A DNA stretch of 64,000 nucleotides from a virus (lineage: Duplodnaviria; Heunggongvirae; Uroviricota; Caudoviricetes). Positions 23,859 to 50,487 of this stretch are shown here, one piece after another. Position 1 is the stretch's first letter; every line of letters begins with the position of its first letter. The stretch is taken from the IMG/VR virus record IMGVR_UViG_3300028797_000098, positions 102,321 through 166,320 of that record; one strand, 5' to 3'. The notes under the pieces were generated by a model. That model did not search any database and was not told the DNA's origin. It saw only the letters and a program-made list of their open reading frames with translations. Position numbers and translations under genes: made by a program.

Positions 23859-24596
23859 ATGAGTACACATGAACAGAGCGAAACCGTACAGCTCCTGTAC
23901 AAGCTGAGCATCCGGTCCCTGGAAGACGAGGACGAGGACTATGACGGGGTAATCTACTGTAACCCGGAAACACAGGTCCCCATCTTCGCCGACCTTATGA
24001 CCGCGTTCACTCATTCGTACCAGGCGGTCGATGCTCCGTACTACGACCTTCCCAAGGGTGTCGAGGGCAGCAACTATTTCATGTCCTTCGACAAGGAACT
24101 CGGGGCCGTTCTGTGTGCCAATTACCGCATCCAGCACAAGATACTCTACGATACCGAAAAGTTCATTGCCGCAATCAAGGCGATTGATGACGATATCGGG
24201 AGTAATTTCGACAGCTGGATTGACTGTCATTTCGAGTTCAATTCCTGTGGAAAGCGGCTCAGCGTATCGGCGAGTTGTGGGCCCGACCGGATCGTCGCCC
24301 CGGTGGCATGTACTTGTCAGTTCCTGTTCAGGTGGAACAATATCGACGAAATCGAGAAGGTGAACTGGGCGATTGGCTATGAGAATGACGCGCTCAACAT
24401 CGTGCGGCATCCGAAGCGTCATGAGGAAGAACTCGCAAGGGTCAACCGCCGTATCGAGGACATTACCGAATTATTGAAGCAGGTAGGCGAAGATGTGAAC
24501 GGGAACATTTCCATCCAGCATGACAAAGAGCTGCTGGAAATGTTCAAGTGGGTGGAAGCCCACAAGGACCGGTACTTCTACGGAACCTACTGCTAG
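23859..24596 (+). CDS. hypothetical protein (paralog of 23184-23855)
   Basis: Tandem paralog by manual alignment. Confidence 0.75.
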   Translation: MSTHEQSETVQLLYKLSIRSLEDEDEDYDGVIYCNPETQVPIFADLMTAFTHSYQAVDAPYYDLPKGVEGSNYFMSFDKELGAVLCANYRIQHKILYDTEKFIAAIKAIDDDIGSNFDSWIDCHFEFNSCGKRLSVSASCGPDRIVAPVACTCQFLFRWNNIDEIEKVNWAIGYENDALNIVRHPKRHEEELARVNRRIEDITELLKQVGEDVNGNISIQHDKELLEMFKWVEAHKDRYFYGTYC

Positions 24597-25869: not shown

Positions 25870-26796
25870 ATGGAAGAGAATAAATCAAAGGTTTATTTCC
25901 GCTGCGCCCAAATGCCTATAATCACCAAAAAAAGAAGTTCTGATAATTCCCGCCGCTATGCAGGTGATGATGATTATAACTCTGTGGAACGGGTTGCGTT
26001 TATCTACGATAGAGCACCAATGGCCGCAAATAATGAATATGATACCTGGTGCATCGCAGAGGCTGTATTGGCACACCCGGAAAAATGCCTTGATGATTCT
26101 AATACTAAGATAATTTCATTCATTTCATCAATTCCGAAGCCGGGTAATGAAAATTTCACGACTAATATGACAGAGCGTGATTTGACAGATCCTGAAGACC
26201 TTGAATTGATTTATGGGATGTCTGGCAACGATCTTGATAAGGAAGAACCTGATCTTTATGCAATCTATCTGACCGGAACCCGTAAGTACATTCGTAGAGT
26301 TCGGGTTACGCGAAAAGGAGTAAAATTGCCGATTCCGCTGTCGGTTGTGAATACTTCTGGGATTACTCCAGATGGTGGGTGTCTTAACCTTAAACTTCCG
26401 ATTAAGGACAAGATGGCGTTTGATGACCATTTGAAGGAACTCGATATTGTTGAAGACTTGTCGAGTGCTGACAAGGCAGTCATCATCATATTCCATGATA
26501 TTAAGCATGCAGTTGCGTACCTCATGGCTCAATCAAATGCCGATGTAAAGGCAGGCGAGAATAGCTGGGTGGCAAAGTGGAGTTATACAGTATCGAAGCA
26601 TGTCGCGGAAAAACGAGAAGCAGACGAAAAGAAACGGAAAGCGAATGAAGAATATAACAACTTCATCAAGTCGCTGCCGCCTGCGCCCGGGTACATCCCG
26701 CGTAAAAAGAAATTCAACTGGAAACGAATGGTTATGATACCTGCTGGACTGGCGATTGGATTTCTGCTTGGCGAACTCTGGATGCTATGTCATTAA
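25870..26796 (+). CDS. hypothetical protein with C-terminal membrane anchor
   Basis: AAGGA upstream; C-terminal hydrophobic helix. Confidence 0.75.
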   Translation: MEENKSKVYFRCAQMPIITKKRSSDNSRRYAGDDDYNSVERVAFIYDRAPMAANNEYDTWCIAEAVLAHPEKCLDDSNTKIISFISSIPKPGNENFTTNMTERDLTDPEDLELIYGMSGNDLDKEEPDLYAIYLTGTRKYIRRVRVTRKGVKLPIPLSVVNTSGITPDGGCLNLKLPIKDKMAFDDHLKELDIVEDLSSADKAVIIIFHDIKHAVAYLMAQSNADVKAGENSWVAKWSYTVSKHVAEKREADEKKRKANEEYNNFIKSLPPAPGYIPRKKKFNWKRMVMIPAGLAIGFLLGELWMLCH

Positions 26797-26812
26797 ATCC
26801 GCCAACCGGTGG

Positions 26813-26841
26813 TTGCCATCAGTTGAGCTGTTTGCTACATT
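26813..26841 (+). promoter_or_regulatory. sigma70-like promoter TTGCCA-N17-TACATT
   Basis: Exact consensus; in-frame GTG 6 nt downstream. Confidence 0.85.
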
Positions 26842-26847
26842 TTGAAC

Positions 26848-27357
26848 GTGACTGAAGAACAATTTATATCTATTCTCCCGCTGTTCCGTGGAACACCTAG
26901 GCAGGCAAAGGATGCTTTGGCTGCATATCCCGAAATCAACCGCATGGCAATCTGGTCAATTCGTAAGATTTTGGGATACACCGCCGGTGAACCTACCAAG
27001 GTCAACGGCACGCCCGAAGTTCTTGCCGAAATGGTGGATAAATATCGCAACGGCGAGGGTACGCTGCGTGGCCTTGCAAATGAGTACCATGTTGCGCCTA
27101 AAACGTTACAGAGGGCCTTGCACAAGGCCGGATTCGATACATCAAGGCAGGATACCTGGAGTACCATAAAGGAAAAAAGACTACTGAAATACATTGCTGA
27201 CGGCATGACCTATACCCAGATAAGCAAGCTGTTCAATATCAGCATATCAGCGGTATCACAGAAGGCCCACCGTCTAGGTGTCCCGAATGTCAAAGCAGGA
27301 CACCCAAGCAAGTACAAGGGAATGCGGCTTAATGGCGCTTCTAAGCCGAGAGGTTAG
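26848..27357 (+). CDS. putative helix-turn-helix DNA-binding protein
   Basis: TLRGLANEYHVAPKTLQRAL and GMTYTQISKLFNISISAVSQKA HTH-like segments. Confidence 0.6.
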   Translation: MTEEQFISILPLFRGTPRQAKDALAAYPEINRMAIWSIRKILGYTAGEPTKVNGTPEVLAEMVDKYRNGEGTLRGLANEYHVAPKTLQRALHKAGFDTSRQDTWSTIKEKRLLKYIADGMTYTQISKLFNISISAVSQKAHRLGVPNVKAGHPSKYKGMRLNGASKPRG

Positions 27358-32839: not shown

Positions 32840-32868
32840 TTGCCAAAAGCAAAAACATTTGCTACATT
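32840..32868 (+). promoter_or_regulatory. sigma70-like promoter heading the RNA island
   Basis: TTGCCA-N17-TACATT followed by non-coding structured sequence. Confidence 0.85.
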
Positions 32869-32873
32869 TGGAA

Positions 32874-33284
32874 CAGCCGGGAAGAGCGGCGATTTGGCCG
32901 AGAGCCATATCAGAAGATTGACATGTCGGAAGCGTTTAAATAGTGCAGCGGTAGCACGGGTTCTTTATTCACCGTTTGTTTCCCGTGCTACCGAAAAGTT
33001 TAAAGGTGGCCGCCTGCAGCGGCATCGTAGTTCCTCGTCGTACCAAAAACATGGCATGGTCTCAATAGTAAAGAGTTTAAGGGTCACTTGTGGCCGTCGA
33101 ACTCTCCCCATGTACTGGGCGTGCAAACTGTGCGCCGACGTAACGACCTAAGCCCCTCGGCTGGGGGCGTTGTTCCTGGACTGACCGTAGTACGTTGGGA
33201 AGGGAGCGATCGTAGCAGTAGGAAGAGTCAGCCCCCCTCTGGGAGATCTTGCCGTCAAAGGCGCCGTGAGGCAAAGGGGCACAT
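32874..33284 (+). ncRNA. candidate ~410-nt structured ncRNA, family unknown
   Basis: Starts at the predicted TSS; contiguous hairpins including a 12-bp stem CGGTAGCACGGG/CCCGTGCTACCG (32949-32993). Confidence 0.55.
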
Positions 33285-33358
33285 CGGAGTTTAGCTCAGT
33301 CTGGTAGAGCATCTGCTTTGGGAGCAGAGGGTCGCTGGTTCGAATCCAGTTACTCCGA
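33285..33358 (+). tRNA. tRNA-Pro(UGG)
   Basis: Cloverleaf, TCTGC-TTTGGGA-GCAGA anticodon arm, GGTTCGAATCC; no encoded CCA. Confidence 0.95.
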
Positions 33359-33359
33359 C

Positions 33360-33676
33360 GAAATTAAACAAGAAGAGCGGTTTGAAATCGACCTTTGGTG
33401 CTCGCCCGGTATCGTGTGGCTGCAGCGCATGCCGGATAAAAAGGTTAAATGTGTCGAACAATTTGGAACAGTCTGGATGAACAATTAAGTGGTCCACATG
33501 CCTTTGTTTGAGGTCTTCAGTAATGAAGGCACTCCCGTTAGGGAGGGTGGCATGTGAGGGGTAGCGAATCGGGATTCCCCTTGTTCCGTTGAATGTCGCC
33601 AATTGGATGATTGCGTTGCTTGGATACTCATTCGATTGGTTTCTTGGGACGATAAGCAACTAGTCCCATGCTCTCT
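33360..33676 (+). ncRNA. candidate structured RNA segment
   Basis: CACATGCC/GGCATGTG multiloop (33495-33556) plus other hairpins; no credible ORF. Confidence 0.4.
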
Positions 33677-34036
33677 GGGGGTGCTTTGGTTTCGACTGGG
33701 CATCTGACCATGGAGGCCTCGCCCGAAGTTAGTCTGTGGCTTCGTAAAAACGGACTGAAAGAATAAATGCTAACAATGCATACGCCTGCCGCATGGCTGC
33801 CTAATCGGTAGTTATGCTGCTGCCTGGGACAAGCGAGAGGAATAAATCCCGGGACCAAGTGCATATCTCTCGAATCTAGGCCGGAGTTATGGATTTGCAT
33901 GGCCTACCTTACTTTAATCCAGAACCCTCACTGGTTAGATCACCTTGGGCAACAGGTCAGGGCCCGAAACGATTGATGGCGATATGGTTGAATTGGAAGG
34001 AAGTTTAGGACAGGGGTTCGAACCCCCTCACCTCCA
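33677..34036 (+). ncRNA. ssrA: tmRNA, tag ANNAYACRMAA* (33769-33804)
   Basis: GGGGGTG/CACCTCC acceptor with G3-U70, GGTTTCGAC, T-arm GGGGTTCGAACCCC, resume codon GCT after ATAAAT. Confidence 0.95.
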
Positions 34037-34043
34037 CGAATAG

Positions 34044-34133
34044 ATATGTGCTCGTAGGCCCAATAGGCTGACGGACACCCGGGAAGGTCCGTTGGAATTG
34101 ATCTGACTAGGGGCCGGGGAAACGGGCACATAT
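34044..34133 (+). ncRNA. candidate ~90-nt rod-shaped RNA
   Basis: 12-bp closing stem ATATGTGCTCGT/ACGGGCACATAT with nested GGCCC/GGGCC and ACGG..ACC/GGT.CCGT. Confidence 0.5.
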
Positions 34134-34145
34134 TGTTGAATTTAT

Positions 34146-35097
34146 GTCCTCCTGCCGGTAGGACCGCCCTTCAGCACGGGGTAGATTGCATATACGGTTA
34201 CGAGTGTTGCCGATGTTGCATGAAGGCAGTGGACCAAAGTATGACCTGAGGACCCATCTTGGTGGATGGGCGTGGCAAGATGCTTCGTAACAGATTCACA
34301 GGGTCAGAGGCTTCCCCTGACAAGGGGTTCTCGTCTAGCATCGGCTAAGGTAGACGAGCTCGTAAAATCGAGAGCACCCGGATTACTTAATTGTGGCTCA
34401 GGGTGTGCCGAGAGTTTCATTCTCCTGGTCCCTTCGTGGATACGGGTTGCACTGTGGACTGCGTACCAGTCACAGCAGCGTAAAGCGGTAGGCCGGCGCT
34501 ATAACCGGCAGTGTGTTTGAAAAACGCGGTCGTCTAAACGAGCAGGCGTTAATAGCGTCTGTGCTTAGGACCCCGGCGCCATCGTGGCCACGAATGTATC
34601 AAATAACGGATGTGGCAAACAGCGCGGGTGATATAGGTTCCGTCCCTATCCGCAACGCTTATGGAACGCCTTATTATTAAGTACGGTGTAAGGCCGGGCG
34701 GTCCTCCTCCCCGAGAAATCGCGGAGAATGGGACAGCCAAAGTAGGAAATTTTAAGATTCCGGGATGTTCTATAAAACGTCATCGGTGAAGATTGTTAGG
34801 GCACATCGTCTGGTTGAGGGTGAAAGCCTGTGGAGACCCACGCCTAACCGCACCGGTGACATCGAATTTAATATCCGCAGAACCAAACGCAGACTCCGGG
34901 TCTCGAGAAACTGGATATGTGTGGCCTACCGGCTAAGGTAGCGGAAAATAGTCGCTTGCTTACTATTGTACCTTGGACCCACCATGTACATGCGTACCGT
35001 GGCACAAGGCGCCTCTGGAAGCGAAAAATGCGAGAACGGCAAGCGGCAAGGGGTGGTTCTTCCCTGGTTTAGATCATGAACCACCCCGGCGCTTTTA
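34146..35097 (+). ncRNA. candidate ~950-nt large structured ncRNA (or array of RNAs), family unknown
   Basis: More than 20 near-contiguous hairpins and multiloops, no plausible ORF, ends in the 10-bp stem GGGGTGGTTC/GAACCACCCC followed by a short T run. Confidence 0.6.
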
Positions 35098-35098
35098 T

Positions 35099-35171
35099 TG
35101 ATACATAGCTCAGTTGGTAGAGCCCGCGACTGTTAATCGCGTTGTCCCTGGTTCGAGTCCAGGTGTATCAG
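35099..35171 (+). tRNA. tRNA-Asn(GUU)
   Basis: TGATACA/TGTATCA acceptor, CGCGA-CTGTTAA-TCGCG. Confidence 0.95.
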
Positions 35172-35181
35172 CTAAACCATC

Positions 35182-35335
35182 ACGTACCCGATGTCTGCCT
35201 ACTCGGAGTAGGAAGCATGTAGGGCCATTTGAATGCACCGGTATGCAGAGTAACGCCCTTGATGGTAAGGGTTCCGCTTCACCGGCTATATCCGCTCGAC
35301 TCGGATCATCTAGGTGACCGCAGATAAGGGTACGT
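35182..35335 (+). ncRNA. candidate ~155-nt closed RNA
   Basis: ACGTACCC/GGGTACGT plus TGTCTGC/GCAGATA closing stems enclosing hairpins. Confidence 0.5.
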
Positions 35336-35340
35336 CTTTT

Positions 35341-35413
35341 TCCGGAGTAGCTCAGTTGGTAGAGCAGTTGCCTTGTAAGCATCAGGTCGGGAGTTCGAGC
35401 CTCTCCTCCGGAG
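35341..35413 (+). tRNA. tRNA-Thr(UGU)
   Basis: TCCGGAG/CTCCGGA acceptor, loop CTTGTAA, GTTCGAG T-loop. Confidence 0.9.
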
Positions 35414-35443
35414 CTAGAATATAAACGCTGTTGAGTTTTTAGT

Positions 35444-35519
35444 TGCGGGTGAGTGGAACGTATATACCATTCGAGCCTCATAAGCTCCGAGATACTGGGT
35501 CAGACTCCCAGACCCGCTA
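35444..35519 (+). tRNA. atypical tRNA-Met(CAU), initiator-like
   Basis: GCGGGT/ACCCGC acceptor with 1:72 mismatch, loop CTCATAA, T-arm CTGGG-TCAGACT-CCCAG. Confidence 0.7.
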
Positions 35520-35572
35520 CTAAGAATTTGTACGTGTTAAAAGCAAAAACAATGTGTATATTCGGTCGATTT

Positions 35573-35779
35573 AAGTTCGATGTGTAACTTAATGACACCG
35601 TTCTAAACCGGGCACCATCGAAACTTTTTTGAGATAGAATAAGGTCTAAGCCGAAAGTCGCGGGTCTTTAGTTCCAAATGACTAGAACACCGACCGGGGC
35701 AACCCTCGTTGGAGGCTCTGGGTTAAAGTCCCAGTTGATCCGAATAGCGGCGCAAGCTGTCGAACGAGTAGGCTAGGTC
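35573..35779 (+). ncRNA. candidate multibranched RNA
   Basis: AGTTCGATG/CATCGAAACT hairpin and CTAAGCC/GGCTAGG multiloop with a GCAA-capped helix. Confidence 0.4.
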
Positions 35780-35855
35780 ACAGTGAGAAAGGACTGTCTT
35801 GAATTTGAAATTGTCGCAGTGCACGGCGACATACTGGACGCATGGAAGAAAAACA

Positions 35856-35937
35856 GGCTGCGTGGTGTAGTTGGAAGAACATACCCGCCTCGGGCAACTG
35901 ACGCGAGAGACGCTAGGTTCGAAACCTGCTGTAGCAC
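35856..35937 (+). ncRNA. tRNA-like RNA lacking an anticodon loop
   Basis: Acceptor GCTGCG/TGTAGC, D-arm GTGT-AGTTGGAAGA-ACAT, T-arm AGG-TTCGAAA-CCT, central arm CGC-C-TCGG-GCAA-CTGA-C-GCG. Confidence 0.55.
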
Positions 35938-36029
35938 ATTGGCCGGGTTACCGGTTGAAGGAGTATTCCGTGCGGGTGGCAACAAAGAGCCACACATGCA
36001 GCCCTCTGGCCAGGTAGGGAAATTTAAAC

Positions 36030-36103
36030 GGACCGGTAGCTCAGTTGGTCAGAGCGGCGGACTCATAACCCGTTGGTCCCTGGTTCAAGTCCAGGCCGGT
36101 CCA
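36030..36103 (+). tRNA. tRNA(CAU), probably Ile2 (lysidine type)
   Basis: GGACCGG/CCGGTCC-A acceptor resembles bacterial Ile2; loop CTCATAA. Confidence 0.85.
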
Positions 36104-36163
36104 CTTTTGCCCAACGGGCGCCCGCTGAACCATGGATAACATCTGGCGCATCCGGTAAGCAGA

Positions 36164-36250
36164 CGGCGCATAGGTATCGTCTAATTTCCATAGGACGCCT
36201 CCCTGTATTCGGGGGAAACCCGGTGTTGGAATCCGGAAACCGTGCGCCGA
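36164..36250 (+). ncRNA. degenerate tRNA-like RNA (8-nt anticodon loop, extended acceptor)
   Basis: CGGCGCA/TGCGCCG + GGT/ACC, D-like TCGTCTAA..TAGGACG, CCTCC-CTGTATTC-GGGGG, CCGG-TGTTGGAAT-CCGG. Confidence 0.5.
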
Positions 36251-36270
36251 TCACTTTTAATGGAGGAAAA

Positions 36271-36516
36271 ATGGCTGACAAAAACGAATTCCACAATGAC
36301 TTGGAAGTCTATTGCTCCGCTAAGGAACACAAGGGAATGGTCCTTGACCTTATAAGGGTGTACGGACCGACAGCCACGCTGAAGGATGTCCTTGCCAGCA
36401 TTAACTATCAGATGGACAAGTACGAGAACCTTTTGTTCATGCACAACCTGTTAGAGACCAAGAGTGTTGCGGGTGCCGTGCTGTCGTCCCTTAGCGATTT
36501 GAAGGAAACTGAATGA
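36271..36516 (+). CDS. hypothetical protein within the RNA island
   Basis: GGAGG upstream. Confidence 0.7.
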   Translation: MADKNEFHNDLEVYCSAKEHKGMVLDLIRVYGPTATLKDVLASINYQMDKYENLLFMHNLLETKSVAGAVLSSLSDLKETE

Positions 36517-36531
36517 ATGAATGACTAACAA

Positions 36532-36630
36532 ATGCGCATAGTGTAGCTTCCGTTGATCACGGGAGTCTCCTGCCCTGTCGATTCCGGGTCGGCCAAAGTC
36601 AGGCAATGAAGGTGGATGCCTGGTGCGCAT
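36532..36630 (+). ncRNA. candidate ~100-nt closed RNA
   Basis: ATGCGCA/TGCGCAT closing stem; inner TTCCG-TTGATCA-CGGGA hairpin. Confidence 0.4.
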
Positions 36631-36641
36631 GTTTTTAACGA

Positions 36642-36717
36642 GTCCGTGTCGTCAAGTTGGAATGGCCCCTCTCTCCTAAAGAGGTGTTTTACACAGGTTC
36701 GAGCCCTGTCACGGATA
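36642..36717 (+). tRNA. tRNA-Arg(CCU)
   Basis: GTCCGTG/CACGGAT acceptor, CCTCT-CTCCTAA-AGAGG, ACAGG-TTCGAGC-CCTGT. Confidence 0.9.
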
Positions 36718-36739
36718 CTAATATCGAATGGAGAACAAC

Positions 36740-36916
36740 ATGAAAGAGAAGAAGAAAGAATTTGTTGAGGAGACCCAGGAGCAGAAGGATGCTCGCTGGA
36801 AGAAACAGGCCAAGGCGGCAAAGAGTTTCGCGGTGTCTAGCGGCATTGACTTGAAGAAGGTAGCTCGCGAACGCCGCAATAACGAATGGGCCAAGAATAA
36901 GGATAATTGGTACTAA
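36740..36916 (+). CDS. small basic hypothetical protein
   Basis: GGAG upstream; K/E/R-rich. Confidence 0.55.
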   Translation: MKEKKKEFVEETQEQKDARWKKQAKAAKSFAVSSGIDLKKVARERRNNEWAKNKDNWY

Positions 36917-36962
36917 TAAGCTTGACGCTTCCGACAAGAGCTTTGCGTTCAATGTCCAGCAA

Positions 36963-36992
36963 GGCGTCCCGTTGCCACGGGGCGCCTTTTTT
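36963..36992 (+). terminator. intrinsic terminator closing the RNA island
   Basis: GGCGTCCCG-TTGCCA-CGGGGCGCC-TTTTTT. Confidence 0.8.
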
Positions 36993-38195: not shown

Positions 38196-38405
38196 ATGAA
38201 AAAGATATTACGGGGATTGCTTTTTATAGTCATTAGCTGCACATTGCTGTGCACTATTTGGCCGCTTGCGTTTATCGCATCCGTGTTCGGCGCAGTATTG
38301 CAATATGCCACCGAAGATGTGACGCTTAAGGAAGCTGTCAAGGAAAAATTCTCTTTAAATTTTCGAGATTTCAATCCATACGAGTGGGTTTCTAAGAGAT
38401 ACTGA
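38196..38405 (+). CDS. small membrane protein
   Basis: GGAGG upstream; hydrophobic N-terminal half. Confidence 0.65.
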   Translation: MKKILRGLLFIVISCTLLCTIWPLAFIASVFGAVLQYATEDVTLKEAVKEKFSLNFRDFNPYEWVSKRY

Positions 38406-39901
38406 TGCTTGACGAAAATGAAATACAGTCCAAGCTGTCCTATGCGGCTAACTTGATGTCAAACCGGGCGCCCATTCTCCTTGGTTTCTATGTCATGCTC
38501 AACAAGCGCATGACTAGTGACAAGTCGATAACCATGCGAGCTGGATGCGATGCCGGAAAGCCGTTTATCGAGTACAGTGACTGGTTCGTGAACATGATGG
38601 AACCGTCCTTGCTCGGGGCGGTGCTGTATGCCAACTGCCTCAGGATAGCGTTGCACCATTGCGATACCCGTGTAAAGATGCCTGAAGCCATGTTCAGGCT
38701 TGCAAGTGACCTGGTGGTATATGAATACGCCCGGCATGTCGTCGATACTACCGTCGATGACAATTCGGCGATTGTTGGACAGTTGTTCCCGAGCATCTGG
38801 GCTTATTCCGACAAGTTTGCTGCAGCCGGGTTTGACCCTGTCAAGGACTTGACCCTTGAAAAGGTGTTCGACCTCCTTATGCAGAGCAAGGAGGATTCCG
38901 AAAATGAAACCGACGAAAAGAATCCGGACGGCAACCAGGAAGATAGCGGGAGCGAAGGCAACGGTGAACAAAGCGACAACGGTGACGAGGAAGGTGGCGA
39001 ACCGAACCACGATGGCGAATCTGGCGGGGAAGAAGGCGAGGATGATAAATCCCAGGAAGGCGGTGGAGGTTCCGGGGAATCCGATGACTTTGATGATGAC
39101 GATGCCGACTCCGAAAACGAAGGCGAATCGGGAAGCGGTGGCGACAATGCAGGGGATAGTGATGATGGGAAGAGCGAATCCTATCAGGCTATCCAGCAGA
39201 TGTTTGACCCGGAAAATTCGGCCCAGGACATGAAGGACTGGGGACAGGATTCTGACGCTTCCGACAATATCCGCGATGCCGCCTCGATTCAGTTTGCCAA
39301 TGGGCAAGGTGGTGCCAGTGGCCAGTTGGCCCTGGTTATCAAGGAAGCCAACCGCGTGCATGTAGATGCCGCTCGTCTGTTCAACATGTTCATGACTAGC
39401 AATTTCGGTGCATCGACCAGGCAGACGTGGTCCATGCCCAACCTGGCCCTGCGCCGGTTCGGCTCGATAGCCCCTGGCCATGTCCGCAAGAAGGACAAGC
39501 CGAAACTATTGTTTGCAGTTGACGTATCAGGCTCCATGCTTAGCATGAACCTGGTAAACCGGTGCTTTGCCGCAGTGAACAACTTCATCGGCGATGCCGC
39601 GCTTGACCTGTGCTATTGGGATGACGTATGTTCTGAAATCCTGCATGACCCTAAGGACGTATTCAATACGGACGTGTTCGGGGGTGGCATGACAAATCCG
39701 CAGTGCGTGCTTAAACGGCTTGAAATGGAACACAGGACTTATGATGGCATAGTGTTTCTTACCGACTGCGAGTTTGACTGGGAACGCCCACGCGAGGTCA
39801 ACCGTATCTGCGTGGTGAAAGCTGGAACCGGTGCCGGAATTGTACCTGCCTGGTGCAGGTGGACAATGGGAATCGACGACCTGTTGAAAAATGCAACTTA
39901 A
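38405..39901 (+). CDS. vWA domain / DUF2201-like putative metallopeptidase protein
   Basis: N-terminal helical domain, acidic Gly-rich linker, MIDAS-like AVDVSGSM, GGGMT, VFLTDCE; HExxH replaced by ANCLRIALHH. Confidence 0.8.
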   Translation: MLDENEIQSKLSYAANLMSNRAPILLGFYVMLNKRMTSDKSITMRAGCDAGKPFIEYSDWFVNMMEPSLLGAVLYANCLRIALHHCDTRVKMPEAMFRLASDLVVYEYARHVVDTTVDDNSAIVGQLFPSIWAYSDKFAAAGFDPVKDLTLEKVFDLLMQSKEDSENETDEKNPDGNQEDSGSEGNGEQSDNGDEEGGEPNHDGESGGEEGEDDKSQEGGGGSGESDDFDDDDADSENEGESGSGGDNAGDSDDGKSESYQAIQQMFDPENSAQDMKDWGQDSDASDNIRDAASIQFANGQGGASGQLALVIKEANRVHVDAARLFNMFMTSNFGASTRQTWSMPNLALRRFGSIAPGHVRKKDKPKLLFAVDVSGSMLSMNLVNRCFAAVNNFIGDAALDLCYWDDVCSEILHDPKDVFNTDVFGGGMTNPQCVLKRLEMEHRTYDGIVFLTDCEFDWERPREVNRICVVKAGTGAGIVPAWCRWTMGIDDLLKNAT

Positions 39902-40796: not shown

Positions 40797-41078
40797 ATGA
40801 ATATTACTAAGCAACACCTGGTTACCGATATCGCGGTGGCGACAGGCATTACACAGAAAGATACCAAGCAAGTCGTTGAAGCTTTCCTGGATTTAATTGA
40901 GCTGCATCTTGAAAAGGGCAATACTGTCGAACTCCGTGGGTTTGGACGGTTTTCGGTCAAAGGCCGCAAATCGAGGCCAGTGCGCAATCCCAAAACCGGG
41001 GCGGTGTTGCAACTGGGCGACCGCATGGTTCCTACTGTGAAGTTCTGTGATGATTTAAAGGAAAGGGTTAACAAATAA
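40797..41078 (+). CDS. hup: HU/IHF family DNA-binding protein
   Basis: MNITKQHLV..IA...GIT...VELRGFGRFSVKGRKSRPVRNPKTG. Confidence 0.9.
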   Translation: MNITKQHLVTDIAVATGITQKDTKQVVEAFLDLIELHLEKGNTVELRGFGRFSVKGRKSRPVRNPKTGAVLQLGDRMVPTVKFCDDLKERVNK

Positions 41079-42295
41079 TGCGTCGTTGTAGCATTGCGCA
41101 GTTCTATGAACTGATTGACATCATACCGACCTGGAAGCCGATATTGCTCATTGGCGACACCGGTATCGGCAAGACAACCATTGTTAAGAAGCAATCCCTG
41201 CAGAAGAACAGGTATTTCGCGTACTGTCCCTGCATGTCCACTGCTGAAACTATTAACCTGACCGGTATTCCTGATGTTTCCGGCGATCATACGGTCTACA
41301 AGCCGATGGAATGGTTCAAGCCGGATACGGTGACCGACCTGTTGCTTGATGAAATCAACCGTAACGAGTATATCATCAATGCCCTCATGGAACTTGCCGT
41401 CGACCAGCACATCGGCAGTGCGCAGCTTGCACCAGGCTCCCGAGTGTTTGCGGCAATGAACCCGTCATCGGCAAACGAGTTCATGGTCAAGGAACTGGAA
41501 CTTTCCCACATGAGAAGGTTTTGCGTTGTCGAATTGGCCCCTACTGTCGATGAATGGCTGGAATTCAGCAAGGAAGAAGGTTGCCATCCGGCAATCGTCA
41601 AATACATCAATGCGCACCGTGAGGCATTAGATCCTAGCGAGGATTCGTCCATCCGCAAGGGAAGACGGTATTATACCAACATGGATGCGACCAGAAGCGG
41701 ATGGTCCACCCTGTCGGAAGCCTTGTTCAACGGGGAAAGCCAGAACAAGTTTGACCCGTTCAAGCGAAAGGATGGCAAGCAGCTCCTGGAACTCCTGGTC
41801 AACGGGTATGTTGGGCCGGAATATTCCGAAAGCTTTTGCGAACTCTATTACAGCATGTTCTACAATACCAACGGGGCATCACTGGATGAAATGCTGACGG
41901 CAACTGATATCATTGAGGGCAGTACCGAAAGATGGAAGAGCGAGCTCCCGGAAAGGGTGTCCCGGCTGTGCAAGGAGAATACCATTGAAGCTGCGAAACT
42001 TGTTGGCTCAGTGGCCAAATACCTGTCAAGCAATGCCGGGTTGCTGTACAACTCGACCACAAACAAGGTGACCATCAAGGGCATTACTTATGCAGTGAAC
42101 TTCTTTAAGTTCCTGCGTTCGTGCACCCCCGAACTCGTATCCCAGATGTACTTCAACCATATCAAGCCGGCTAAGCTGAAAGCGGGCGATGAGGGCATTA
42201 CATGGGCGGATGCGATGTGTGCGGGCTGTCCGGAAACTGTAAAGCTTTTGCAGGAAGTCCGAAAAAATTCTGGACAGCCGGTTGCCAAGTATTAA
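41078..42295 (+). CDS. MoxR-like AAA+ ATPase
   Basis: Walker A GDTGIGKT, Walker B LLLDEINR, VFAAMNP, RRF. Confidence 0.85.
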   Translation: MRRCSIAQFYELIDIIPTWKPILLIGDTGIGKTTIVKKQSLQKNRYFAYCPCMSTAETINLTGIPDVSGDHTVYKPMEWFKPDTVTDLLLDEINRNEYIINALMELAVDQHIGSAQLAPGSRVFAAMNPSSANEFMVKELELSHMRRFCVVELAPTVDEWLEFSKEEGCHPAIVKYINAHREALDPSEDSSIRKGRRYYTNMDATRSGWSTLSEALFNGESQNKFDPFKRKDGKQLLELLVNGYVGPEYSESFCELYYSMFYNTNGASLDEMLTATDIIEGSTERWKSELPERVSRLCKENTIEAAKLVGSVAKYLSSNAGLLYNSTTNKVTIKGITYAVNFFKFLRSCTPELVSQMYFNHIKPAKLKAGDEGITWADAMCAGCPETVKLLQEVRKNSGQPVAKY

Positions 42296-44884: not shown

Positions 44885-46141
44885 ATGTTTACCGAAATCG
44901 CATGCAACATCATCAAGGCCACCGACGACAAAGTGCCTGATATCGAGGCTGCAGAGTTTAACCTGAAAGGGAAGAAAGCCAACCTTGACCTTGTCCAGAA
45001 GGAATATGAACAAGCCAAGAAATCGCTTCATAAGGCTAAGATGGCGCAATACAATGCCCGAAAGAAGGTCGTGCAGGATTATATCGACAATGTCCTTATG
45101 AACATGCGGGCGCCTGAAACCTACGATCCAGACCGTGTGAAGAAGCTGCGCAGCATCCTGGCAAGCTATGACGAAAAGGACACCTATGTCAAGCGTCTTG
45201 AAATCCTGACCGCAATCCGCGAACTGCAACTAATTCTTACGGCATTCCCCATCGCCCGCCGAGTGGGCAACATTGTCCGCGAATGGACAGGGAACAAGGA
45301 TGTCGTTATCAGCGAGGATGGCAGTAAAGTCAGCGTAGGTAAAAATGTCATCATGCGGACAGTGGAACAACTGGACCAGAGTGACAGTTTCATATCCAGC
45401 ATATGTCGAGAATACAAGTATAGACACCTGTTGCAATTCTATGGAAGCGAAGCACATTATTCCGGTACTCCAATGGGTTATATTCATGAATTCTGGGAAA
45501 GCAGGTGCCTTGCCCTGCCACTTGATCCTGACATAGTGATTGGTGAAGCCCCGTCAGATGAAGTTGATTTTAACCGGTCAAAATATTCCCGTGCTTTCGA
45601 TTGGTGTAAAAATACTGACAAGTATTCAATAAGGGATATTGGCACTGAATTGTTCAAGGTTGACGGGAGTCGTTTTTCTGGCATGGTTGCCATGTTAGCA
45701 GAGTGTGACCCCAGTGTTGCCGAAAGCACAGTATCCGACATTGACTGGGCAAGCAACTTCATTGTGCTGAATCCGTGCCTTTTTACTGTCAATGAGGTAA
45801 TGAGTAATTACGGACGGTTTACACAGGCCCACTATAAGGGTTGCACGGACATGTATCATAATTCCAAGTCTCACCTTGATTTTTACATCAACCGCATCAA
45901 CGAGAAATTGCAGGAATGTGCCCCCAAGACTGTCAAGGATATCAAGTTCGATGCGGACTTGATGGCGGTCACCTGGCGCGATCCGTATGACAAGGACATG
46001 GCGTTTGACCCGGACACATGTGAAATGCAGCATCCGTCGCAGACGGTCCATAAGCTGGATGTGCGAAATGTTATATTGTACTATGTCGTTATGTATGCCT
46101 ACAAGCACATACCTGGCATGAAGAAGCCGGACGAGGTTTGA
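44885..46141 (+). CDS. hypothetical protein
   Basis: Long ORF, N-terminal coiled coil. Confidence 0.8.
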   Translation: MFTEIACNIIKATDDKVPDIEAAEFNLKGKKANLDLVQKEYEQAKKSLHKAKMAQYNARKKVVQDYIDNVLMNMRAPETYDPDRVKKLRSILASYDEKDTYVKRLEILTAIRELQLILTAFPIARRVGNIVREWTGNKDVVISEDGSKVSVGKNVIMRTVEQLDQSDSFISSICREYKYRHLLQFYGSEAHYSGTPMGYIHEFWESRCLALPLDPDIVIGEAPSDEVDFNRSKYSRAFDWCKNTDKYSIRDIGTELFKVDGSRFSGMVAMLAECDPSVAESTVSDIDWASNFIVLNPCLFTVNEVMSNYGRFTQAHYKGCTDMYHNSKSHLDFYINRINEKLQECAPKTVKDIKFDADLMAVTWRDPYDKDMAFDPDTCEMQHPSQTVHKLDVRNVILYYVVMYAYKHIPGMKKPDEV

Positions 46142-49640: not shown

Positions 49641-49945
49641 TTATGTCATCTGTTTTACCGTTTGAAGAAGCATACAGAAAAGTCATTGAACATGCCGCTG
49701 AAGGCGTGGATGTAGATAGCGTATATCGCAATCTCGGACTGGATCCGGAATTTGCCGACGATGCAAGCAAGCTGATGGTTGCTTTGGTGATTATGAACAG
49801 CGGGTGCGTTCAGGAACACGTACCAACCAATGTGGAATACAGCATCAAGGCGGCATGCAAGAATGTCATTGAACGCGGGGAAATCGAAGGGACTTCCCCG
49901 GAAGCGGCAGCCGAATCAATGAGCAAGATGCGCTCAATGATTTAG
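49637..49945 (+). CDS. hypothetical protein
   Basis: GAGG upstream. Confidence 0.65.
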   Translation: MIMSSVLPFEEAYRKVIEHAAEGVDVDSVYRNLGLDPEFADDASKLMVALVIMNSGCVQEHVPTNVEYSIKAACKNVIERGEIEGTSPEAAAESMSKMRSMI

Positions 49946-50487
49946 ATGTATTCGGACTCGTATTCGTGGGCGATGCCGTACTTGATTGCATCGTCCGCCC
50001 CGAGGAATACATCCTCCCGGAGCATCCGGTCAAGGAGGTCCTGGGGGATGGACATGGTGGACAGAAGGTTCCTGAACAGGCCGTTGTAGTAATCCAGTTC
50101 AAGCGCCATGTTCATTGCGTCGTTACGGGTAGTGACGCCACCGGACTCTTCATTGTAGAAAGCCGGGTGTATCATTATCCTTGCATGGCGGTAGATTGTC
50201 CTGCGAACACCAGCACAGAATATCATGGCGCCCATCGAACTTGCCTTCCCGGATGCAATCGTGTTTACTGTGCATCCCTTTGTCCGTGCGATGGTCATCG
50301 CGTCGATGATTCGGAACCCGTCATCAAGGGAGCCGCCATCGCTACAAATGATTAATGTAATCTCCCCCGGCTCGCGGCAAAGCTCGTGGATGGCCCGGAC
50401 GCACTTGTCAGCAGACTCCTCTGAAATCTCCCCGGTCAGCCTAATGATTCGTTCTTCGTTATCGACTTCTAGCTGTTCTTCGTCCAT
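49942..50487 (-). CDS. clpP: ClpP-like serine protease
   Basis: IIRLTGEI, ICSDGGS..DGFRIID, catalytic Ser in KASSMG, His in IMIHP, EDVFL.A.DA..YGI. Confidence 0.85.
   Translation of the reverse strand: MDEEQLEVDNEERIIRLTGEISEESADKCVRAIHELCREPGEITLIICSDGGSLDDGFRIIDAMTIARTKGCTVNTIASGKASSMGAMIFCAGVRRTIYRHARIMIHPAFYNEESGGVTTRNDAMNMALELDYYNGLFRNLLSTMSIPQDLLDRMLREDVFLGADDAIKYGIAHEYESEYI

Follow-up and report, generated by a model that had tools for sequence, protein, structure and literature searches.

The RNA island and the head of module A

The stretch of DNA analyzed here (hereafter the window) comprises 64,000 nt of a 203-kb linear IMG/VR virus record, which is estimated to be 52% complete. 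The virus is a gut jumbo phage whose close relatives are a contig of 399 kb, accession JAEEGJ010001900.1, and one of 474 kb, from which locus L003 comes; sample names suggest that the relatives come from the rumen and from other gut sources. At positions 32840 to 36988, on the plus strand, lies a polycistronic RNA island spanning ~4 kb, which contains five called tRNAs, a tmRNA, two small ORFs, and many structured modules without an assignment; modules A and B, treated below, belong to it. The promoter-like site at its start (32840-68) is a consensus match of a type that is no commoner than in shuffled sequences, and the terminator-like site at its end (36961-88) is a consensus match alone. 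A second array of ~30 tRNAs lies elsewhere in the 203-kb genome, and the phage encodes, as judged by motifs, a CCA/poly(A)-type nucleotidyltransferase (G000:55847). Related loci were fetched with the 82-aa ORF of the island as the anchor; single neighboring proteins used as queries gave no match. Downstream of the island are a DUF2201 metallopeptidase-like gene and an AAA_5 ATPase gene (38405-39901 and 41078-42295, plus strand), and a ClpP-family protease is encoded at 49942-50487 on the minus strand. Two closed, non-tRNA structured modules (G000:44695-44765 and 45097-45200) are found inside the main tRNA array of the genome, the second being ~86% identical in the remote phages G001 and G002 though protein similarity to them is low.

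Module A carries a tRNA-like domain (35856 to 35938, plus strand) made up of an acceptor stem, a D-arm, a sealed central arm, a 4-nt variable loop, and a T-arm. The original prediction had described a tRNA-shaped RNA at 35856-35937 whose anticodon loop is replaced by a GCAA-capped helix, and the acceptor, the D-arm with its GG, the TTCGAAA T-arm, and the GCAA were each recovered where it had put them. The acceptor (35856-62 paired with 35930-37) forms six pairs and contains a position that can be read as a G·A mismatch or as a bulged A, the D-arm (35865-82) includes G18G19, and the T-arm (35912-29) presents the loop TTCGAAA on a stem with one bulged base. The D- and T-arms agree with the tRNA consensus (U8, A14, G18G19, the T-loop, and G15-C48). 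The central arm (35884 to 35907, plus strand) is formed by a 5-step anticodon stem and a 14-nt loop, CT-CGG-GCAA-CTG-AC, with the tetraloop at 35894-35897. This loop folds on itself through C·C, U-A, CGG/CUG, and GCAA, with pair probabilities of ~0.55. The predicted GCAA cap is therefore present, but the proposed 8-bp helix below it consists of seven standard or wobble pairs broken by the C·C mismatch; beneath this rod, a C·A mismatch and a C-G pair lie in the anticodon stem.

As encoded, the element cannot decode, in agreement with the prediction: the loop has 14 nt in every copy, and none offers a 7-nt anticodon loop with U33. Module A of the window receives no ARAGORN call and no Rfam match at the gathering score, and the copy at locus L048 reaches 20.5 bits on the tRNA model (RF00005), below the cut-off of 29. 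Because deletion of 7 nt from the loop in silico yields an ARAGORN tRNA call at a relaxed score, the body is considered to be a real, tRNA-derived one, and the suggestion of a tRNA mimic is supported. As to the type of tRNA from which it arose, the scores of module A for Gly, Pro, Asp, Lys, and Ile are no more than one point apart, and Asp leads narrowly for module B. A tRNA-Asp ancestry, considered at first, is thus one candidate among several.

The same in silico deletion raises the question of whether the element is simply a tRNA-Pro(CGG) or tRNA-Gln(CTG) gene with a 7-nt intron, since removal of 7 nt leads ARAGORN to call Gln(CTG) or Pro(CGG). RtcB is encoded in the clade (G003), and there is no Pro(CGG) gene in the sequenced part of G000, the genome of the window phage. 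However, removal of the insert restores a canonical tRNA in most A copies only: no removal from module B gives U33, and the A copies of the L027 type have G at position 33. Furthermore, G000 has a normal Gln(CTG) gene, G003 has two normal Pro(CGG) genes, and the acceptor ends of module A presumably fit neither the Pro nor the Gln identity set. An intron thus has a negligible chance of being the explanation.

When taken alone, the 96-nt piece around the head has a folding energy no better than that of shuffled sequences (z -0.19), and its D-arm is not favored by the energy model. Consequently, the evidence against chance is comparative, consisting of conservation, the pattern of substitutions, and the paralogs.

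Several other tRNA-like elements occur in or near the island. At 35444-35520 (plus strand) is a gene shaped like tRNA-Met(CAT), in which the D-arm is degenerate and the T-loop reads TCAGACT; it is called by neither ARAGORN nor Rfam, and in many relatives its place is taken by a different, normal CAT tRNA. A further tRNA-like element at 36164-36250 (plus strand) is 86-98% conserved. Its central loop has 8 nt here and is of the GGGATGA type in L048, and because this loop differs between copies, decoding is unlikely. The CAT tRNA just 3' of module A carries in several relatives, by eye, a group I intron-like insert in its anticodon loop, of which there are at least two versions (L019:100-400, L021, L048:4560-4800, and L043:1830-2060). 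Another anticodon-less tRNA shape, free and stalkless, is found at L003:2293-2364 (plus strand) and also in L022; its short central arm contains GGCAA, and its T-loop is TTAGAAG. Finally, a tRNA-Gln(CTG) call at L044:4018-4092 (plus strand) is 89% identical to the tRNA-Asn(GTT) of the window, an apparent anticodon switch.

A shared stalk and two paralogs

Although the predicted interval placed the arms correctly, the whole element is larger. Module A as a unit of gain and loss extends from 35810 to 36020 (plus strand), between A/T-rich linkers. Its outer helix, P1, pairs 35839-47 with 35966-74 and is part of the minimum-energy fold in 9 of the 11 copies. The 5' strand of P1 (35839-35847) is continued, up to 35850, by a GAA strand; opposed to the AGUA on the other side of the helix, this GAA is taken to form a bulged-G (loop E or sarcin-ricin type) motif. 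From the outside inward, P1 is followed by the bulged-G motif, a short helix, and a three-way junction from which the acceptor stem and a side hairpin, P3, emerge. P3 (35942 to 35955, plus strand) is supported by folds and pair counts and covaries in module B, and the 3' side of the stalk (35954 to 35974, plus strand) consists of the family motif GTYGAA-N1-2-GAGTA (35954-35965) and the second P1 strand (35966-35974). In the RNA, the junction motif reads GUYGAA. Outside the stalk, the module also includes a hairpin on the 5' side (35812-35831) and a tail on the 3' side (35975-36019). The 141 nt of the stalked region fold more stably than shuffled sequences (z -2.0), whereas the full 211 nt do not (z -0.6). 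By eye, there is also some likeness to CsrA-binding GGA loops, to ribozymes, and to 5S loop E.

Thus, the free-standing, tRNA-sized RNA that had been envisaged is not what is encoded, as the 5' and 3' flanks of the head pair into a stalk that is common to two paralogs. The tRNA-like domain may well be the head of a larger phage RNA of ~135 nt (35839-35974), or up to ~210 nt with its flanks. Because of the stalk pairing, the acceptor end would be blocked unless RNase P and RNase Z cut the head out.

The first paralog, module B (35646 to 35776, plus strand; tRNA-like domain at 35661-35742), has the same stalk and motif, and its central arm bears a 13-nt loop holding GGG-GCAA-CCC. The second, module C, is not in the window genome but is present in many relatives, with a GCAAA-capped arm and an extra hairpin in the D-loop. 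Hence the central arm is sealed by GCAA or GCAAA in all three paralogs. The motif GTYGAA-N1-2-GAGTA follows A, B, and C; in the whole 203-kb genome it occurs twice, after A and after B. The unpaired junction bases are nearly invariant both within and between the paralogs. A covariance model (R2) trained on module A copies alone recognizes B over its full length at 45-57 bits (52 bits for the B of the window) and C at 25-33 bits. Ordinary tRNAs are matched mostly in the head and reach at most 30 bits, with one flank-inclusive tRNA match at 33. In B, six pairs show two-sided changes, two of them in the outer stalk, a number reached in 0 of 500 shuffles; the changes fall in the outer stalk, acceptor, T-stem, and P3. 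The single two-sided change in module C, located in P1, does not exceed what shuffles give. There are no two-sided pair changes among the copies of module A itself, and so the covariation of the family comes from B and C. The stalk is accordingly well supported in B, where pairs covary; in A and C it is backed by homology and folding. The elbow of B is relaxed, with a TTAAAGT loop and a G19 that is often lost, and B is without a C74-type 3' end.

These features bear on the idea that RNase P and RNase Z cut the head free, that CCA is then added, and that the resulting tRNA-sized molecule misleads nucleases, synthetases, or EF-Tu as a decoy or mimic. Such a fate would suit the canonical elbow of A, the A-C that follows the stem at its 3' end, as N73-C74 does in most tRNA genes of the window phage, and the phage-encoded nucleotidyltransferase; it also has a precedent in the YrlA RNA of M. 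smegmatis, which is cleaved by RNase P and gains CA (PMC4201824). However, release leaves a stalk and junction conserved in three paralogs without an explanation, the acceptor, whose six pairs are accompanied by a mismatch or bulge, carries no clear identity set, and B lacks the C74-type end. Moreover, anticodon nucleases recognize the sequence of the anticodon loop itself (PMC10264068), and since this sequence is missing from module A, a decoy for these enzymes in particular is weakened. A released head is therefore judged unlikely.

Part of the 3' tail of module A can pair with the 5' half of the head, which could in principle create a two-state switch in which the tail unfolds the tRNA shape. 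The alternative duplex has ~20 pairs, 11 of which hold in all 11 rows of the alignment, and it is the alignment consensus fold; its energy is reached by 4 of 500 shuffles for the window copy. In L020, however, 41 of 500 shuffles do as well, nothing comparable is seen in B or C, there is no two-sided change, and the complementarity is partly due to P1 and to G+C-rich stems. Such a switch is thus very unlikely.

The modules come and go in the clade. Module A is 95-98% identical where present but is absent in L014, L044, L163, and L263-L265, and in L025 its 5' hairpin is the sole part retained. One, two, or (in L263-L265) all three of the modules are missing from certain relatives, which makes A, B, and C accessory. 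In L271 (3771-3940, plus strand), the B-C block is tandemly duplicated, and within this duplication the 5' part of A is fused to B; the chimera is a product of recombination or an assembly artifact. Mobile inserts with ends that look, by eye, IS200/605- or HEARO-like break modules of the island in L268 near 2530, L039:2330-2700, L264:3540-3900, and L267:1470-1800; the one in L268 hits the 5' flank of module C.

The location of module A in a polycistronic RNA island rich in structured modules has also been considered as a sign of a processing mark acting in cis, similar to mascRNA. In this case, the tRNA shape would attract RNase P and RNase Z, whose cuts in the 4-kb transcript would set the ends of the neighboring RNAs, and the arm could be sealed since no anticodon is needed; in keeping with this, elbow and acceptor features are all that is kept. 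However, real tRNAs already punctuate the island, pairing of leader with trailer is needless for a simple mark, and the same neighbors are found in a relative without module A (L014). Such a mark is distinctly unlikely.

Searches for the family beyond the clade gave a narrow range. The family pattern has 20 matches in viral_contigs, one of which is a true member (L163/G003, of the same clade), and 75 in genome_contigs (GTDB genomes), none of which is a member; these were exact-pattern scans that miss diverged members. Exact patterns for the central arm, D-arm, and 5' scaffold found chance matches alone in viral_contigs. A generic scan for GCAA plus a T-loop returned 58 stretches, among which, by eye, there is no family member save the tmRNA of the clade. 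In L059, L062, L070, L072, and about ten more IMG/VR loci, the generic GCAA pattern hits a recurring short RNA of tRNA-like shape that combines a T-loop with an atypical 5' half; by eye, it is unrelated to the clade of module A. Three candidates were rejected: the L252 contig (Fibrobacteraceae bin) is an ordinary tRNA-Leu locus and not this phage, a possible fourth module in L003 near 2243 is unmatched by the covariance model, and L163:2508-2688 is an ordinary tRNA-Pro with flanks. No family in Rfam 15 matches module A at the gathering threshold, no GenBank phage matches its sequence, and a literature search, from which subscription journals were mostly absent, returned no description of the RNA. 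The three modules thus constitute a stalked tRNA-mimic family that is new to Rfam 15 and to the literature searched and has a narrow known range.

Conservation and substitution pattern

The original prediction held that a GNRA cap points to selection rather than decay, which would be contradicted if homologs had ordinary 7-nt anticodon loops, as expected of a simple pseudogene. None has one. The cap itself is GCAA in 32 of the 33 central arms counted, a number that includes redundant loci, and ACAA in the remaining arm (L268); in one B copy (L033) it is GCGA, a variation within GNRA. The GNRA cap is thus kept strongly without being absolute.

The tRNA-like domain is 92-98% identical in every relative that has it. 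At the DNA level, module A is 95-98% identical in L003, L027, L029, and L039, compared with 67-68% for the 236-aa ORF and 72-75% for the 58-aa ORF. Recent exchange of modules between phages could contribute in part to this high identity, and for this reason, the pattern of changes outweighs the level of identity as evidence. Within the tRNA-like domain, copies differ at position 9 and at T-loop position 60, in the D-loop and the variable loop, and in the bulge of the T-stem (T, G, or deleted), or the difference makes a pair better (G7-C66, G10-C25, and U28-A42); one change breaks a pair. Among 17 distinct substitutions placed on the stalked structure, 10 fall on unpaired bases, 6 preserve or strengthen a pair, and 1 disrupts one. 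The single pair-breaking change compares with 4.9 expected for the full stalked model (P ~0.01) and 3.7 for the head alone (P ~0.06), in both cases with a statistic that ignores relatedness.

These results bear on whether module A is a decayed pseudo-tRNA riding in a mobile cassette. The module is dispensable in the clade, and GNRA is lost in one copy (L268). However, its identity is above that of the neighboring genes, its changes spare pairs, and its paralogs covary, which upholds selection as predicted. The decay reading is already largely refuted and retains a very slim chance.

A tRNA look-alike as a possible protein tether

In its proposed mode of action, module A would most resemble the tRNA mimics Yrn1 and YrlA. 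In D. radiodurans Yrn1, T and D arms flank an anticodon-type arm with a loop of other than 7 nt, all mounted on a protein-bound stem (PMC4201824), and YrlA RNAs contain the motif GNCGAAN0-1G (PMC4201824). Module A shares with Yrn1/YrlA (RF02553) a non-decoding, tRNA-like D/T domain on a stem, to which is added a junction motif that resembles GNCGAAN0-1G, and with Yrn1 specifically the anticodon-type arm between the other arms (PMC4201824). However, YrlA is circularly permuted, with a T arm, an acceptor stem-loop closed by a loop, and a D arm, in that order, whereas module A has the normal tRNA order of D-arm, central arm, and T-arm and a sealed anticodon arm. In addition, module A has a bulged-G motif and an extra junction hairpin, its motif lies 3' of the head, and no Ro60 gene is found within ~4 kb of it on the same strand or elsewhere in two partial genomes of the clade.

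A true Y RNA with Yrn1-type wiring, bound by phage or host Ro60/Rsr, has thus to be weighed. GNCGAAN0-1G is exact in B and has one mismatch in A and in C. In the remote clade of G001 and G002, Ro60 is encoded within a tRNA array beside tRNA-framed RNAs, some of which are GCAA-tipped, and the 82-aa island gene is common to that clade and to the clade of the window. However, the motif is 3' of the head in all of these modules rather than near the 5' end, and a few percent of RNAs this long would contain so short a motif by chance. The YrlA model RF02553 gives no match to module A at E values up to 10. Pfam finds no TROVE/Ro60 in G000 or G003, which are partial (52% and 59%), both cover the island, and jointly represent, by estimate, perhaps three quarters of a genome; a custom profile of the G001-type phage Ro60 finds none in them either. 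Among the Ro60 cluster members listed, none is on the known long contigs of the clade. Furthermore, G001 is remote (47 of 237 ORFs match, with a median identity of 35%), and its tRNA array is without A, B, and C. The Ro60 lead, which came from that clade, was consequently not carried over to the clade of module A. Because there is no YrlA match, the topology differs, and no Ro60 is found in G000 or G003, module A is not filed as a Y RNA, and a Ro60-bound Y RNA is considered quite improbable.

Four tRNA-framed RNAs in G002 (23863-23995, 24097-24225, 26404-26545, and 26800-26945; loci L125, L126, and L131), with the same in G001 (L130), carry a long arm, common to them all, where the anticodon loop would be, and the last of them lies directly upstream of the Ro60/TROVE gene in the tRNA array. 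Like module A, they have a tRNA body with a structured arm in place of the anticodon loop, in some cases tipped by GCAA. They differ in having the protein-binding helix inside the anticodon arm and a free acceptor end, whereas the arm of module A is short and its motif lies beyond the acceptor stem.

tRNA-Other of Bacillus cereus, a chromosomal pseudo-tRNA that flanks an island, is not known to have a stalk or a paralogous family. It resembles module A in being a tRNA-shaped RNA that has no function in translation, yet it has a phenotype (PMC3399842). Stable RNAs of unknown function from phage tRNA regions have long been known, as exemplified by RNAC and RNAD of phage T4. These two are located in the tRNA region and undergo tRNA-like processing. 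Neither is known to present a full cloverleaf whose arm is sealed and which stands on a stalk; module A also has no sequence match in any GenBank phage. Like module A, RNAC and RNAD (species I and II) are phage non-coding RNAs without a known function (PMC9697503).

Taken together, the comparisons establish a cloverleaf, a sealed arm, a stalk, a conserved junction sequence, and three paralogs. They have led to a model in which module A is most likely a protein-binding tRNA look-alike. With a probability of roughly one half, it is a stalked, non-decoding RNA whose tRNA-derived head is mounted by its acceptor stem and that works as a protein tether or sink. In this model, module A would be transcribed along with the RNA island and excised at the A/T-rich linkers. 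The D/T elbow (G18G19, TTCGA, and G15-C48, all kept in A) would fold like that of a tRNA and could be read by tRNA-binding or tRNA-modifying proteins, while a second protein may dock on the stalk, with its bulged-G motif and GUYGAA junction. Like Yrn1/YrlA, the RNA would thereby tether or soak up proteins and so tune RNA processing, decay, or translation control in the infected cell. The GNRA cap would be a stabilizing seal on an arm that no longer decodes rather than an active part. On this analysis, a protein-docking scaffold would be preferred to a decoy for anticodon nucleases, which is the weaker idea.

A more specific version, tentative and on the whole rather unlikely, is that the RNA family is independent of Ro60 and that its sealed tRNA heads, mounted on bulged-G stalks, tether or titrate a host protein that senses tRNA or degrades RNA. 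This would give the phage an RNA-based tool of counter-defense or translation control, with different partners for the three paralogs. tRNA shapes without an anticodon loop escape standard annotation, and the module A family, with its covariation support, exact helices, and invariant junction, could be studied in vitro without culture of the phage. If the stalk does bind a partner other than Ro60, the design of Y RNAs, a tRNA head on a protein-binding stem, would extend to a new system.
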